DNA of 40,107 nucleotides from a virus. The stretch lies in the IMG/VR virus record IMGVR_UViG_3300045988_075043, positions 1-40,107 of that record; one strand, 5' to 3'. Of the stretch, positions 12,751 to 38,849 are shown piece by piece. Below the pieces are notes generated by a model. The model made no database searches and was not told where the DNA came from. It was given only the letters and a program-made list of their open reading frames with translations. The translations under genes and the position numbers were made by a program. The first letter of the stretch is position 1, and every line of letters starts with the position of its first letter.

Positions 12751-12779
12751 TTGACATATGGGATATCCCATGATATAAT
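12751..12779 (+). promoter_or_regulatory. Consensus promoter with a palindromic operator in the spacer
   Basis: TTGACA (12751-12756), 17 nt, TATAAT (12774-12779). The spacer contains the perfect 14-bp palindrome ATGGGATATCCCAT (12758-12771). Confidence 0.8.
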
Positions 12780-17200: not shown

Positions 17201-20200
17201 GCCACTGCTTGTAGGTTTCTCCGCCTTCCTTCTGCCGGAATGTGGAATCCTCCCGCTTCATGTCAAGAATGGCGTTCCGTGCCCGTTGCGCGGCGGTCAT
17301 TGAATCCTGCAAATCTGCCATTGTCCCGGAAATGGCGAATGCCTGCGTGACCTGTCCGGCGTTCGTCCCGATTTCCCGGATTTTCATATTCATTTCCGTG
17401 ATCTGGTTCTGTGCGCCGTCAATTTCAGAGTGTACCAGATTCTTGGTCACATATTTGGCGGTCAAAAGGTCTTCCGCCGTCCATGCGTCCTTACCCATAA
17501 GGTAGTCATATTCCGCCTGAACCTTTTCCGGGGTACTGGTTCTTTCCTTTGCCGTGGCCGTGGTGTCCGCGTTGTGCTTGACGTCGTAAATTCCGGCATC
17601 CGGGTTTCCCTTGACCATCTGCTTATAGCCCTGCCGGATGTCCGCGTCCTTGCTGTGAAGTCCGGTGTTGCTTACCGTCCGCGATACTTCCAAATCCCCG
17701 GACGGCTCATTCTGCATTCCCACCGTGTCCACAGACTGTCCGCCCCCCGTGGACTTCCCGGAACTGTCCTCCACCTGTGGACTGCTCTTTCCCATCAGGG
17801 AATCCCGGTAGGCCAAGGCGGCGTCATAGTCGTTCTTGCCGTAGGTGGGCAGTGCCGCCAGCTGGTCATCCGTGATCTTCGGGTAAGTACCCATCTTTTG
17901 GGCGACGGTGTCCGCGCTGTCCCCGTTGTGCTTCATCACGTAGATGTACGGCTCGCCCTTGTCCGGCGTCCACCCCTCGTTGGCGTAGGTCTTGTTGAAC
18001 TCCACCCTTGCCACCGGTTCAAAGCCATATTTGGCGTAGAGTTTCGCAAGCCCTTCCCCGTAGCAGTCCAGCCGGTCGCCGCCCTGCTCAATGGCAATGG
18101 GCATCATGGTGTCAAGGGCTTTCGGGGGCCCTCCGTTCTTGTTCTTGAAAACCGCCACAATGTCCCCGTCCGGAGCAATACCCACGCCCACCGTTCCGTT
18201 GTCGTTCATGAAGGTTCGGACGTTGCCGTCTTTCAGCTGCTGGGCGGATTTCGGCGTAACGCACCAGCCGTTTGCCGGGTCGGAGTTTCGCCCTGCGGTC
18301 AACGCCTGCTCATAGCTTACCGGGTCGGCGGTGGTGTCCCTTACGGCATAAGTCGGTGTTCCCCGCTGCCTCTGGGCTTCCTGTAATTTGTCGCTTACGC
18401 GAAGCTCTCCAGAAACTCGTAGGTCATTTTGAGAAGCGCCGCCTCCGGATTCTCCTTGTACGCCTCCCGGAACCACTTGGGTTCCCGCTTCCATTCCTCC
18501 GGGTGCTTGTCCAGATACTGGCAATGCTCCCGTGTCTGCTCCAGAAACCCGTTCGGTTCCAGTTCCTCCGGGTAGTCCCGTTCCATCAGTGCCTTGTAAT
18601 CCCGTTCCATTTTCCGTACCTCCCTGTATCGGATTCCCGTTAATAGCATTATAATTCCCGTCAGTGCCGGTGTCAACGCCCAGAACCCGGTCAAAGGCAT
18701 TTTGCACCGCCTGCCGTTCCGGCGTGACCTCCGGCGTTTCCTGCCTTGCAGGCGCTCTTTCCGCCAGCTCCTGCCCCATGTCCTCGATCAGGCTCTGCGC
18801 CCCCTCCCGGTTCAGGGTTGTGGTGGCGGTGTCCCCGGCCAGCTGCCGGACGGCTGCCTTTACCGCGTTCCGCTTCTCCGACGCCGTGGCCATTTGGGAC
18901 AGGTCAAGCCCCGTCTGCCGGGAAAGCTGCTCCATGGCTGCCGGGTCTGAAAGAATCTTCTCCACGGTCTTGTTGCTCACGTTCCCCGTTTCCGCCAGCT
19001 TGTCCAGTGCGTTTGTGAGCGCATTCCCCACCTGTGGTGTCCCTGCCGCCTCCGCATCAGGGCTTTGTGCTTTCGTGGTGTCAGTGGACGTTTCCGGTGA
19101 AATCCCCGCCTGTGGGTTCCCTGCGGTCTCCTGCGCGTTCTGAGAGGCATTCGTCTTTGCCTCTGCCCTTGCAACGGCATTGCTGTACACGATAGCAGTA
19201 AGGCCGGACAGACCGCCGGACAGACCGGAGACAAAGGCGGTTTCCTTTGCCTCGTCCACGATGGCCTTGGCCGCCGCCGCTTTCGCATCGGCGTAGGAAT
19301 AGCCGTCAACCACAAGCTGCTGAATGGCCCGGTTGTACTCGCTCTTTTCCTGTAGAATGGCCGCTTCGGCAAGGGTGCTGCCAACCAGGCTCGCTTCTTC
19401 CTCGCTGATCTCCACACCGGCCTGACCGATGGTGTTCAGCAGGAACTTGGTCAAATCCTTGGTAGCCCCCGCCTTGGCCTTGTCCAGCAGCTTGTCCATG
19501 GATACCTTTTCCGTCAGGACTTCCAGTATGGCGTTGACCGTGCCCATGCCGTAGGCCTGGGCAGGGGTAGCGCCCTTCTGGGTGGCTTCCCGGACACCGG
19601 ACGCAAAGGAATCCATAGCAACCGCGCCAAGGGAGGCGGTGGGACCCAGGACAGCCAGCCGGGTCAGGGAATCCGCCGTGGACATAGCCGCCTGATAGCC
19701 GTAGCCCAAAGCGTTTCTTACGACGTTGTCCCCTTCGCCCACGATATTCTTTCCGGTTTCCTCCCGGACTGCGTCGTAGTAGATGGAAGCAAGGTCATTC
19801 GACCGCACCGGTTCAAGCGTGGGATACCGCTTGGGACTAATGAGTTCGCCCACTCTGCCCATGAATGCGTTCGGCGTATTCAACAGCTTGCCGCCAACGG
19901 ATTCTATGCTCTTTCCAATGGCTCCGGGTACGGTAGACACATCCTCGGCGGCTTTCGCCATTTTCTCCTCCGCCTGCCGCTCATGAAGATCCCATGAGTA
20001 GGCGGCAACCATGGCGTCGAAGGCATCCCTGCCGTACTTGTCCACCAGAGGTTGACTCGCCTTGTCCATTCGGGTTGCCGCAAGTAAGGAAGAACCGCCG
20101 CTTCCGAAATGTGCCCAGAAATTTTCGGATATATCTTTGTTCTCGACATAATCCGCCAGCAATTTCCGGTCTTCCTCCGGGAGAGCGTTCACCTTCGCCA

Positions 20201-35864: not shown

Positions 35865-35981
35865 TCACTTTGCGCTACTGGCGACCAGTGCTTTGATGTA
35901 TAATGCTTTCAGCCGTTCCAGCGGTATTTCATCCAGCAGCTTCATGAGTTCCCTTTTCAGTATTTCGCGGTCGTCCTTCAT
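35865..35981 (-). CDS. Possible small protein (38 aa)
   Basis: GGAGGG, 7 nt, then ATG. MKDDREILKRELMKLLDEIPLERLKALYIKALVASSAK. Confidence 0.35.
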   Translation of the reverse strand: MKDDREILKRELMKLLDEIPLERLKALYIKALVASSAK

Positions 35982-36099
35982 GTCTGTACCCTCCATTGTG
36001 TATTTATAAACATTTGTTTGATTACGTAGCGTATAATAGCACGTCATGTGTCCAATAAACCGGACTAATTAGAAAAATACACAAAATTTTTTCTTTTCG

Positions 36100-36128
36100 T
36101 TGAAATTATTTTCTGAACGTGGTATGAT
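36100..36128 (+). promoter_or_regulatory. Upstream promoter P1 of the abi locus
   Basis: TTGAAA, 17 nt, TATGAT. Confidence 0.5.
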
Positions 36129-36181
36129 TTCAGTGGAGGCAGTGCTGTGAATTCTGATTCAAAAAGATTTTCCCCAGATGG

Positions 36182-36210
36182 TTGACAAATTGTCGGGAAG
36201 TCCGTATAAT
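36182..36210 (+). promoter_or_regulatory. Consensus promoter P2 of the abi locus
   Basis: TTGACA (36182-36187), 17 nt, TATAAT (36205-36210). Confidence 0.75.
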
Positions 36211-36216
36211 AGCAAC

Positions 36217-36285
36217 AACAGGACCTCCCGCACCTCTCCACAGGAAACTGTGTGACGTGTCCCAGGGAGGGCATTTTATTATTAT
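36217..36285 (+). ncRNA. Structured leader / short RNA candidate upstream of abi
   Basis: CCTCCC (36224-36229)/GGGAGG (36265-36270) encloses CACAG-GAAA-CTGTG (36239-36252), followed by ATTTTATTATTAT. Confidence 0.4.
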
Positions 36286-36303
36286 GTAAGAGAGATAGAA
36301 ACG

Positions 36304-37164
36304 ATGACCCAGTTAAAAGCTCCAACCACATACGAGCAGCAGCTTGATATTCTGCGTGGCCGTAATGTTCTGGTAGACAATAGTGAAAAGTGCCTTTCTG
36401 TTTTGGAAAGCGTAAATTACTATCGTTTTGTTGCGTACTTCTTGCCGTTTAAGCAGTCTGACGGAAATTACCGTGACGGAACGAATTTCCAAACGGTGTA
36501 TCGTATTTATGAATTTGATCGGAAACTGCGCGGTATATTGTTTGCAGCTCTGGAAGAAGTCGAAATATTCATCCGTGCGAAGCTCGCCTATTTTCACGCC
36601 CACAAATACGGCGCGGAGGGATACCTAAACGCAGATAATTTCTCTAAGTTTCACGATGCTGAAAAATTCAAGGAGAACCTGGATCGTGAAATATCAAGCA
36701 ACAAACGCTCTGCGTTTGTGATCCATCATCAACGTCAATATGGTGGTCATTTCCCGATATGGGTCATTGTTGAGCTGTTCACCTTTGGCATGTTGTCTCG
36801 GTTCTACGGAGACTTGACAACGGCAGATCAAAAGAAGATATCAAGAGAGCTGTATGGGACAATCCCTAAAAATATGAATAGCTGGCTTCGATGCTGTACA
36901 GATTTGCGGAACATTTGCGCCCACTATGGACGGCTGTATTACCGTGTGTTTTCCGCAACTCCCGCCGGAGTAAGTGCAAAAGAGCCAGAGATCAACAGAT
37001 TGTGGGGTGCCACGCTTGCGTTAAGATCTCTATATCCCGACAGGCAGAAATGGAATACAGAAATTCTTCCGCAGTTGTCTTCCCTGATTGAGAGATATCA
37101 GGATGATATTAGCCTATTACATATAGGATTCCCTGACGACTGGGAGAAAACATTGACATTCTAA
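36304..37164 (+). CDS. Abi_2 (AbiD/AbiF-like) abortive-infection protein (286 aa)
   Basis: QQLDILRGRNVLV...VNYYRFVAYFLPF...YEFDRKLRGILFAALEEVEIFIR...RNICAHYGRLY. Low-GC insert. Confidence 0.8.
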   Translation: MTQLKAPTTYEQQLDILRGRNVLVDNSEKCLSVLESVNYYRFVAYFLPFKQSDGNYRDGTNFQTVYRIYEFDRKLRGILFAALEEVEIFIRAKLAYFHAHKYGAEGYLNADNFSKFHDAEKFKENLDREISSNKRSAFVIHHQRQYGGHFPIWVIVELFTFGMLSRFYGDLTTADQKKISRELYGTIPKNMNSWLRCCTDLRNICAHYGRLYYRVFSATPAGVSAKEPEINRLWGATLALRSLYPDRQKWNTEILPQLSSLIERYQDDISLLHIGFPDDWEKTLTF

Positions 37165-37181
37165 ATATTCTCATTTATAAT
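37153..37181 (+). promoter_or_regulatory. Consensus promoter overlapping the abi stop codon
   Basis: TTGACA (37153-37158), 17 nt, TATAAT (37176-37181). Confidence 0.7.
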
Positions 37182-37187
37182 AAGGGT

Positions 37188-37346
37188 GGTCTAGACCTGC
37201 AATGATTTGCTCGTAGAGCGCGAGCAGCATAATCAAAAGAAAGCTCAATTAGTGCGTGATGGGTATCGTCATCGCACGGTCTTATTCAACCCTTGGGTTA
37301 GGACTCCCACCTTTCGGGATGTTCCGACCTCAAGGGTTTATTTTTT
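37188..37346 (+). ncRNA. Candidate ~160-nt structured ncRNA (promoter to intrinsic terminator, no credible ORF)
   Basis: Hairpins: TGCTCG/CGAGCA (37208-37226), GTGCG..TGA/TCA..CGCAC (37252-37277), and a long terminal stem AACCCTTG (37288-37295)/CAAGGGTT (37331-37338) followed by TTATTTTTT. Confidence 0.5.
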
Positions 37347-37544
37347 GGGCGGGATAGACGCCCCGCCACCCGTGCCACAAGGTGACGGGGCTTTGCCGCC
37401 GGTAACGACGTGTGTCCCTTGCCGGTTGCAATACCACCATACACCCCACACAGGCGTTTCGTAAAGCCCCAGATGTGAAATTCCCGTTCCATTTTCGCAA
37501 CAATCGTTCCATATGTGAAACATTCCGTTTTTGGAGGCGGTTTT

Positions 37545-37985
37545 ATGAATATTTCCGAGCATTTATCAGAATTGGAAGCCCTACGGAAGGAGCGGGGCAT
37601 GTCCCAGCAGGAGCTGGCAGAAACCTGCGGCGTATCCAAGGCCACGATCTGCCGCGCCCTGAATGGTGCGACGGAGCCGACGGCAAGGCTTGTGCAGAGC
37701 ATTGAGGCCGCCGTGCAGTACACCCCGGAGGAACCCCCGGTGCTACCCGCCCCCGGCCAGTCCATGGAGGAATATGTGGAATATCTTCAGGCAACGATCA
37801 TCCGCCAGAGCGAGGACTACAGGCGGCACACCATGCAGCTGCAAACGCACTACAGCCTTCTCAACCGCCAGAACCGCCGGGTGATTCTGATTATGGGCAT
37901 TTCCATTGCGGTGCTGGTAATCTTCCTAGTAGGCTGGCTCATCTTCGATATCATGCACCCGGGAACCGGATGGATTCAAAGGTAA
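37545..37985 (+). CDS. Membrane-anchored XRE-family HTH protein (146 aa)
   Basis: SD GGAGG plus ATG. RKERGMSQQELAETCGVSKATICRALNG. C-terminal TM VILIMGISIAVLVIFLVGWLIF. Confidence 0.7.
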   Translation: MNISEHLSELEALRKERGMSQQELAETCGVSKATICRALNGATEPTARLVQSIEAAVQYTPEEPPVLPAPGQSMEEYVEYLQATIIRQSEDYRRHTMQLQTHYSLLNRQNRRVILIMGISIAVLVIFLVGWLIFDIMHPGTGWIQR

Positions 37986-38039
37986 GATAAATTTTTACGA
38001 TTGTCGGAAATATTTTTCCGTTTTTGGTCAATCTGTCTA

Positions 38040-38068
38040 TTGCTATTTTCCATTTCTCGGGGTACAAT
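38040..38068 (+). promoter_or_regulatory. Promoter of the type III TA-like locus
   Basis: TTGCTA (38040-38045), 17 nt, TACAAT (38063-38068). Confidence 0.55.
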
Positions 38069-38125
38069 GTAGACGTAGGATAACCACCTACGCTATATAG
38101 ACGACGTTCATCGTCCGCCCTAATT

Positions 38126-38220
38126 TGCCGCCTGCCGAGAGCGGGATATAAGACTTCGGCTTGTTGTAAGACTGCCGCTTGCCGGGAGCGGGATACAAAA
38201 CTCCGGCCTGAAAATGCCGG
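38126..38220 (+). ncRNA. Tandem imperfect repeats (~2.3 units, period ~42-47 nt): candidate type III antitoxin RNA
   Basis: TGCCGCCTGCCGAGAGCGGGATATAAGACTTCGGC (38126-38160) against TGCCGCTTGCCGGGAGCGGGATACAAAACTCCGGC (38173-38207). The A/T to G/C changes keep the GCCGR...YCGGC pairing. A partial third unit starts at 38215. Confidence 0.55.
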
Positions 38221-38253
38221 ACTGGCCGCCATGCCGGTTCGGCATTCTTTTTT
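38213..38253 (+). terminator. Terminator/attenuator between the repeat RNA and the toxin gene
   Basis: CGGCATT (38240-38246) can pair with AATGCCG (38213-38219) or with ATGCCG (38231-38236). It is followed by CTTTTTT. Confidence 0.6.
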
Positions 38254-38265
38254 GGGGGATAACAA

Positions 38266-38745
38266 ATGACAGAGATACAGGACTCCGGAATATACATAAT
38301 CCGTGATGCTTTCTTTGAAAAATACGGGAACAACCGCTATATGAAGAATAAGCAGGAGAGCCGCCCCCACTACTACGCTATGGCGGACAAATCCGGTGTC
38401 CTATGGATGGTTCCAATGAGTACCAACGTAGATAAATACAAGCGGCTGATATATGAAAGTGAGAGGCGGCACGGCTCCGGAAACTGCGTGCATTACCTCA
38501 TAGCGCCGATATACGGAAAAGACAGGGCTTTTATTATCTGCGATATGTTCCCCGTCCTCCCGGAACATGTACTACGCCCATACAATATCAACAATGTGCC
38601 TTATGTTTTGGAAAACAAAAATATAAAGAAAAACATCCGTGTAAAAGCGCTTGCCTACTTGAACATGGTTGAACGTGGGGTTCTACATAGTCCGTTAAAT
38701 ATTATCGAAACCAAGGCCGCGTTGCTCAAAAGCAGAAAGAACTAG
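38266..38745 (+). CDS. ToxN/AbiQ/CptN-like type III toxin (endoribonuclease) candidate (159 aa)
   Basis: GIYIIRDAFFEKY...RPHYYAM...GVLWMVPMST... and FIICDMFPV parallel the ToxN layout (FYTISSKYIEYL...YLAPLTS...MIPI). The context (repeats plus terminator upstream) fits. Confidence 0.6.
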   Translation: MTEIQDSGIYIIRDAFFEKYGNNRYMKNKQESRPHYYAMADKSGVLWMVPMSTNVDKYKRLIYESERRHGSGNCVHYLIAPIYGKDRAFIICDMFPVLPEHVLRPYNINNVPYVLENKNIKKNIRVKALAYLNMVERGVLHSPLNIIETKAALLKSRKN

Positions 38746-38817
38746 AGGACGGAATGGGCAGCCGCCGCCCTTGTTAGGAGATGTGGGAGTGTCGCCCCAC
38801 CTAGTTCTCAAAAACAG

Positions 38818-38849
38818 TGGCAGACCGTTTCGGCGGTCTGCCATTTTTT
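38818..38849 (+). terminator. Intrinsic terminator upstream of int
   Basis: 10-bp stem TGGCAGACCG/CGGTCTGCCA followed by TTTTTT. Confidence 0.7.

Follow-up and report, generated by a model that had tools for sequence, protein, structure and literature searches.

Type III toxin-antitoxin (TA) systems follow a general logic in which a promoter, tandem pseudoknotted RNA repeats, a terminator and a toxin gene stand in a row. In the tenpIN systems, the RNA antitoxin TenpI has a mean repeat length of 50.9 nucleotides (nt) and a copy number of 2.2 (PMC3401426). These repeats are non-identical and carry an A stretch and an H-type pseudoknot (PMC12283969). Antitoxin repeats are also found without a toxin. 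The pseudo-ToxI of the Pectobacterium phage PhiTE can neutralise a host toxin in trans and thereby defeat abortive infection (PMC3475682). Here, we describe a small predicted transcription unit on the plus strand, positions 37153-37346, of the virus record IMGVR_UViG_3300045988_075043, which was analysed over its whole length of 40,107 nt (the window). We are confident that this unit is an independently transcribed, toxin-less copy of TenpI, and that its repeat corresponds to the Rfam motif 6A (RF02925).

The unit belongs to the same repeat family as TenpI (Blower et al. 2012, PMC3401426; Nadig et al. 2025, PMC12283969), with which it shares a unit of ~51 nt, an A-rich tract, a hairpin-type pseudoknot, and a promoter and leader of the native type. 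It differs from TenpI in that tenpN is missing, one repeat stands in place of about two, the terminator has been swapped for an extra hairpin and a longer terminator, and a closing helix has been added. Published TenpI arrays comprise 1.9-3.0 copies of 39-57 nt (PMC3401426); the 51-nt unit of the window lies within this length range, whereas its copy number lies below it. The cognate toxin of a TenpI array lies directly downstream, beyond the terminator, and no such gene follows the unit of the window. Like pseudo-ToxI, the unit is a phage-borne type III antitoxin repeat without its toxin, and the window thus has the hallmark of the decoy class: 6A is present and TenpN is not. The toxin addressed by pseudo-ToxI is ToxN rather than TenpN, and PhiTE is a lytic myovirus whose wild-type copy needed expansion to work. 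The unit described here, in contrast, lies in the lysogeny module of a temperate phage under a consensus promoter of its own, and a decoy function is proposed for it by analogy. RCd22, an abiF motif RNA (PMC12373285), is likewise a small RNA between a promoter and a terminator, on a prophage and with an Abi gene nearby, and it neutralises its Abi toxin. RCd22 lies upstream of that toxin and matches RF03085, whereas the unit lies downstream of an Abi_2 gene, does not match RF03085, and occurs without Abi_2 in a related phage (L041, below). The CptI and ToxI arrays share the general type III logic, and a complete cptIN locus is found 0.8 kb downstream of the unit. These arrays have other repeat sequences and another toxin family, and they have always been described with a toxin.

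The sequence-only reading of this DNA did not recognise the unit as any known RNA family. This has to be corrected, because a cmscan of the window against Rfam gives a match to 6A RNA, which Rfam lists as Gene; sRNA, at 37203-37253 (+). The match scores 68 bits against a gathering score of 41.2 (E = 8e-12), covers model positions 1-52 of 52 and shows no sequence difference, so that these 51 nt form a single TenpI-type antitoxin repeat. The hallmarks of RF02925 (a hairpin with the loop UAGAGC(R)G, an A-rich single strand and then GCUC) were all recovered in the alignments and pair counts. In the hairpin, 37207-37213 pairs with 37221-37227 around the loop UAGAGCG, and the A-rich tract follows at 37229-37242. 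The pseudoknot is formed between GAGC in the loop (37216-37219) and GCUC (37243-37246), with all four pairs present. Over 48-49 nt, the core is 100% identical to repeats beside an intact tenpN gene at four other loci (L005, L008, L013, L014). The 6A motif is reportedly from Weinberg et al. 2017; a main-text search for "6A motif" was negative. No paper in the literature searchable here links RF02925 or the 6A motif to any function.

The connection between 6A and TenpI was approached from both sides. Motif pattern scans retrieved 14 loci, on which cmscan was then run. Five of the 14 carry head-to-tail pairs of 6A with a period of ~51 nt, and at most of them an open reading frame (ORF) of 136-140 amino acids begins ~50 nt past the last 6A copy. 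In the relatives, the 140-amino-acid ORF scores 124 bits (cut-off 90) with NCBIfam NF047358, the type III toxin-antitoxin system TenpIN family toxin. For TenpN, neither a Pfam family nor a PDB entry related in sequence was found. From the toxin side, an alignment of five TenpN toxins alone was used to retrieve 26 loci from species-representative genomes. 6A lies upstream of the toxin start, on the same strand, in 24 of these 26, with 22 of them scoring at least the gathering score, and the distance from 6A to tenpN is 44-86 nt where measured. As for the two exceptions, one is cut by the end of its contig and the other has two related, more divergent 50-nt repeats. The canonical tenpIN locus is composed of a TTGACA/TATAAT promoter, GGGTG, a small leader hairpin, a divergent repeat 1, a canonical 6A repeat 2, an intrinsic terminator, a ribosome-binding site and tenpN. 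There are usually about two non-identical repeats of 50-52 nt each. This is a type III layout, and both it and the repeat figures match published tenpIN.

The pseudoknot itself is conserved. Among 27 repeats, 97% of cells are paired in the 7-base-pair hairpin and the 4-base-pair pseudoknot GAGC/GCUC, compared with 32-49% when the partners are slid. The loop-to-tail pseudoknot helix taken alone is 99% paired. Two-sided changes are found at five of seven hairpin pairs and at three of four pseudoknot pairs. Because of the toxin-side co-occurrence, the shared layout, the repeat figures and the pseudoknot covariation, 6A (RF02925) is, as judged from sequence comparison, the repeat unit of TenpI, the RNA antitoxin of the tenpIN type III TA. 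PMC3401426 and PMC12283969 make no mention of Rfam or 6A.

The sequence-only reading had proposed a stand-alone unit with its own promoter and terminator, and the features that it had described were all recovered where it had placed them. The promoter, of the sigma-70 type, is TTGACA-17-TATAAT at 37153-37181 (+), a 12/12 match to consensus with 0 expected by shuffling. Four such perfect sites are present in the window, and none was found in any of 100 shuffles. The promoter overlaps the end of the upstream Abi_2 gene, whose stop codon (37162-37164) falls in its spacer. Its TATAAT-AAGGGTG junction is common to complete tenpIN loci, with TATAAT(A/G)AGGGTG found in many canonical ones. The predicted transcript start and 5' leader occupy 37188-37202 (+) and contain the palindrome GGTCTAGACC (37188-37197, beginning 7 nt 3' of the -10 hexamer) as well as the AGACC strand of the closing helix. 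The leader sequence, GACCTGC(A/G)ATGAT, matches the leaders of the tenpIN loci L010 and L018. The intrinsic terminator (37288-37346, +) is a long bulged hairpin at 37288-37338 followed by UAUUUUUU, and has a folding energy of -27.3 kcal/mol (z = -4.18; rounded, -4.2). A simple terminator scan missed this hairpin because of the bulges in its stem. Two sub-threshold Rfam matches were set aside: TEG147 (30.8 bits vs 56.1) merely resembles the terminator, and ceN39 resembles the terminator or GC-rich sequence. For the whole stretch from 37188 to 37346, the folding energy is -60 kcal/mol (z = -5.0), which none of 200 shuffles equalled.

How the unit came to lack its toxin can be read from its siblings. 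The window is a temperate phage: its minus strand encodes the portal, major head protein, large terminase and replication initiator, and its plus strand carries the lysogeny module. Where the window has the toxin-less unit, two sibling phages (L006 and L012) carry a complete tenpIN. By blastn, homology to L006 covers the 6A repeat at 37202-37250, ends at 37250 and restarts at 37351, which corresponds to the last base of the L006 tenpN stop codon. L006 and L012 have 475 nt (the 3' end of the repeat, the native terminator, the ribosome-binding site and tenpN) where the window has a replacement segment of 100 nt, 37251-37350 (+), with a hairpin and a long new terminator. The divergent first repeat is also missing from the window, and the leader GACCTGCAATGAT joins directly to one canonical repeat. 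Beyond the replaced segment, the stretch at 37351-38003, which holds a helix-turn-helix (HTH) membrane gene and its leader, is ~98% identical in L006 and L012, and ORFs for a CptN-type toxin and an integrase follow in the siblings. TenpN is absent from the whole window (best tblastn E = 0.05; no hidden Markov model match). Going by these alignments, the window copy is one that keeps the native tenpIN-type promoter, the leader and one complete repeat, with the rest, including the toxin, replaced. Between the unit and the HTH-membrane gene lies a GC-rich spacer of ~200 nt with inverted repeats (37347-37544), and L006 and L012 have it too, in conserved form, past the stop codon of tenpN.

A second phage carries the same unit. 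L007, found with IMG/VR patterns for the orphan-specific junction and terminator, and L041, found in the one metagenome scan, were the only hits of these searches, and they are probably from one phage. L007/L041 shares 37145-37430 at 96.9% identity, beginning just 5' of the -35 hexamer. Upstream of its unit lies a DUF3800 gene in place of Abi_2, and downstream lies a different HTH-membrane gene. The unit, promoter included, thus stands alone in another context, which upholds the view that it is not the 3' untranslated region of abi. There are four substitutions between the two units and none in the 6A core. The replacement segment has a second hairpin, GUGC(GU)GAUG-loop-CAUCGCAC (37252-37277, +), which is specific to the toxin-less version and is present in L007/L041, where the change 37255 C-to-U retains a G-U pair. 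The 3' strand of the closing helix, GGUCU (37278-37282, +), pairs with AGACC at 37193-37197 in both the minimum-free-energy and the 6A-constrained folds, and the 6A unit and the second hairpin both lie enclosed between the two strands. In L007/L041, this helix shows the compensatory changes 37195 A-to-G and 37280 U-to-C, which are a single event and therefore only suggestive. In eight metagenome contigs with an identical Abi_2 protein, the unit is identical in all, and these copies therefore add no variation. No match was found among INPHARED phages by blastn with 37145-37430, and a search of the genome collection for the second hairpin gave 0 matches. In L007 (1485-1595) and L041 (9811-9921), a DUF3800-I RNA (100 bits) is found, with the DUF3800 gene directly upstream of the toxin-less 6A unit.

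The best reading of the unit, by analogy with the pseudo-ToxI of PhiTE (PMC3475682), is that of an active antitoxin decoy in trans, to which we would give even chances. An RNA of ~158 nt would be made constitutively in lysogens and would display the TenpI pseudoknot. This RNA would bind TenpN-family endoribonucleases from other elements, for example the host, a sibling phage or another prophage, and the binding would block the abortive-infection or addiction killing by those elements. Several findings point to function over decay. The perfect-consensus promoter has been retained. The core is identical to repeats beside TenpN proteins that are only 47-51% identical to the TenpN of L006. The unit has been kept in two phages in which both flanks differ, with one compensatory pair among its four substitutions. 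Further pointers are the tidy, re-engineered form of the unit and, among the other toxin-less copies, their enrichment on viral contigs and their placement in late operons.

These other copies come from an RNA-first survey with a looser pattern, which retrieved 29 viral and 41 genome loci, or 61 after dereplication, 58 of which had enough downstream sequence to be judged. An intact tenpN follows 6A at 28 of the 58 loci, a partial or interrupted one at nine and none at 21. Toxin-less loci make up 11/18 of those on viral contigs and 10/40 of those in genomes (Fisher p = 0.017). They were sorted into four groups, the window type being one. Another group consists of full two-repeat arrays with their native terminator; an integrase comes after the array in L004, L051 and L088, an HTH-membrane gene in L009 and housekeeping genes in L071 and L001. 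The remaining two are composed of single copies. Those of one group are found ~95 nt upstream of a gene in the terS position and terL, in long non-coding gaps (L045, L047, L056, L057, L058, L061), and those of the other in gaps of the structural module (the L042 group; L043, L044, L049). The toxin-less copies of the lytic modules are on the coding strand, just before terS-terL or within structural operons. The terS-proximal class is 47/47 identical to the toxin-proximal repeat of a tenpIN locus on a contig from a metagenome-assembled genome (L018/L073). In the toxin-less copies alone, the hairpin is 99% paired with four covarying pairs, some of which may predate the loss of the toxin.

Two of the terS-proximal copies have particular surroundings: L047 has no credible ORF over roughly 1 kb at its 6A, and in L058 the motif begins 4 nt after a tRNA-like gene. 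In the structural module of L049 (1905-2417) and L044 (~2270-2640), a non-coding gap of ~510 nt holds a toxin-less 6A and, ~275 nt on, an abiF motif (RF03085, 37.8 bits, gathering score 37). No TenpN match to the toxin model was found after 6A in L049 and L044, nor was there an Abi_2-like ORF among the ORFs of L049. This gap could be an array of antitoxin-RNA decoys. More broadly, we consider it possible, though short of probable, that gut-Firmicutes phages, temperate and lytic, widely carry toxin-less antitoxin RNAs as counter-defence decoys. These would be mainly TenpI/6A, with abiF-motif RNA in the same gap in some genomes, and would lie either in late operons or as self-contained genes of the lysogeny module. 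The unit of the window would then be a re-engineered form, one repeat clamped by a closing helix and provided with its own terminator, that protects the lysogen and the phage from sibling TenpN.

A number of findings weigh against a working decoy. The window has a single 6A repeat, compared with ~2 copies at a 50-52-nt period in the relatives. In Escherichia coli, one TenpI repeat from Photorhabdus on its own showed no antitoxic activity (PMC3401426), though the choice of repeat register may have played a part in this. At its 3' junction, the repeat of the window reads AAUUAGUG as opposed to AAUUGAUG at the canonical repeat junction. In the unconstrained minimum-free-energy structure (-60 kcal/mol), the leader and the 5' half of the 6A hairpin are paired with the added segment, and the 6A hairpin is disrupted; the fold constrained to the 6A hairpin is 2 kcal/mol worse, and the ensemble probability of the hairpin is ~0.27, computed without the pseudoknot. 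This exact unit was found in no more than two sequence variants. Intermediates of decay exist elsewhere, namely the nine loci whose tenpN is partial or interrupted and a 6A truncated at its 5' end (L097), and the RNA-first pattern demands exact conserved positions, so that decayed copies would be invisible to it.

The most serious competitor of the decoy is a relic, the remnant of a tenpIN locus after loss of the toxin, perhaps transcribed, functionless, and persisting because the event was recent. We hold this to be a real possibility, clearly behind the decoy. For such a locus to be lost safely, the toxin has to go first, and the siblings carry the complete tenpIN at the same position. The intact, partial or interrupted, and toxin-less loci of the RNA-first survey look like stages of decay, as do the truncated 6A of L097 and the orphans found on chromosomes by housekeeping genes (an amidohydrolase in L071; L001). 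The single repeat, with its inactive Photorhabdus counterpart, also suits a relic, and the eight examined metagenome copies are all identical, so that long persistence is not indicated. However, the window did not arise by simple deletion, for the new hairpin, closing helix and strong terminator form a tidy transcription unit. The promoter is still 12/12, and among the differences between the two known variants is a compensatory change in the closing helix. Moreover, the enrichment of toxin-less copies on viral contigs, inside late operons with unrelated flanks, is a pattern to which local TA decay would not give rise. The unit might instead act in cis: the 37153 promoter would mainly drive the HTH-membrane gene (37545-37985) by read-through, and the 6A unit and its terminator would be an inherited tenpIN attenuator. 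The plus strand showed no promoter-like site within 37347-37544, type III terminators normally pass a fraction of transcripts downstream (PMC3401426; PMC12373285 for AbiF), and an HTH-membrane gene follows the unit in L041 and L009 too. Nevertheless, we regard this as improbable. The terminator is very strong, with a stem of ~20 pairs (-27 kcal/mol) and then a U tract, and the homology between the window and L041 stops ~115 nt before the HTH start, the two HTH genes being different. In addition, an integrase lies directly after the toxin-less array in L004, L051 and L088, and unrelated genes follow at other loci.

The sequence-only reading had also suggested an antitoxin or regulatory RNA for one of the neighbouring genes. 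The class, an antitoxin, was right; the partner was not, since the cognate toxin is TenpN, which the window does not have. A pairing with Abi_2 (upstream) or CptN (downstream) does draw on the position of the unit between these two genes in a defence-rich lysogeny module, and there is a known RNA that neutralises toxins of the AbiF family (PMC12373285). That RNA, however, is found upstream of abiF and carries RF03085, and even at E up to 10 the region 35900-38400 has no match to this motif. A perfect promoter and a leader of its own precede Abi_2, the 6A unit with its own promoter stands behind a DUF3800 gene in L041, and 6A tracks TenpN in 24/26 loci, so both the 3' untranslated region of Abi_2 and an Abi_2 antitoxin were discarded. 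CptN was rejected as a partner because cptN comes with two 47-nt repeats and a terminator of its own. A role with either neighbour is thus largely refuted, and we see very little chance of it. The least credible option, practically negligible, is that the unit encodes a protein. The 85-amino-acid ORF at 37207-37464 exists as first reported, with a TTG start, without a Shine-Dalgarno sequence and crossing the terminator. Pfam gave no match to it, and the conserved RNA motif, which varies by compensatory base-pairing and not in a codon-like manner, makes up its 5' part.

Type III antitoxins, the catalogued 6A motif and one phage decoy are already known. Compared with the searchable papers, three points appear to be new, namely that 6A is the same as TenpI, that toxin-less copies are highly frequent, and the single-repeat, self-terminated architecture. 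If the identity is true, an orphan Rfam family gains a function as the TenpI antitoxin repeat, and the least characterised of the three type III TA families gains a pseudoknot model supported by covariation. Roughly a third of the surveyed 6A loci, and most of those on viral contigs, are toxin-less, and many are placed for expression during lytic growth. If these copies are decoys, RNA mimicry against abortive infection, so far one laboratory example in the pseudo-ToxI of PhiTE, would become a common natural strategy. If the unit is only a relic, it documents how a type III TA decays, with the toxin lost first and the antitoxin and promoter remaining.

The Abi_2 gene upstream of the unit is located at 36304-37164 and has its own perfect promoter (36182-36210) and a structured leader of 93 nt. 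In this region (36182-36303), a hairpin is found at ~36224-36270, and a terminator-like element at 36257-36274 is followed by a U run. The promoter-leader layout is as reported for the AbiF/RCd22 RNA antitoxin (PMC12373285), and the leader has no RF03085 match. A blastn-short search with the leader against all loci returned nothing, and a regular expression found a similar hairpin (GGACTTCCCGCACCTCT...GGGAAG) in L061, 46 nt upstream of its toxin-less 6A. The other two perfect TTGACA-17-TATAAT sites of the window are at 12751-12779 (+) and 18648-18676 (-), the latter within a 2108-amino-acid ORF and on the same strand as that ORF.

Downstream, a complete second type III TA is located at 38126-38745. 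It comprises 47-nt direct repeats (38126-38163 and 38173-38210), a terminator (38213-38246) and cptN, an ORF of 159 amino acids (38266-38745) that matches the CptIN-family toxin NF047359 at 109.8 bits (cut-off 90) and has no Pfam match. Together with 6A and the DUF3800-I RNA, two further finds, skipping-rope and FuFi-1, show that multiple Rfam small RNA motifs are found in or near such modules. FuFi-1 RNA is found ~900 nt upstream of tenpIN in L016. The skipping-rope RNA (RF02924, 57.8 bits) of the window lies at 38738-38808, between the end of cptN and the integrase, and is also present in the sibling L006; it is followed by a terminator-like hairpin at 38816-38845.

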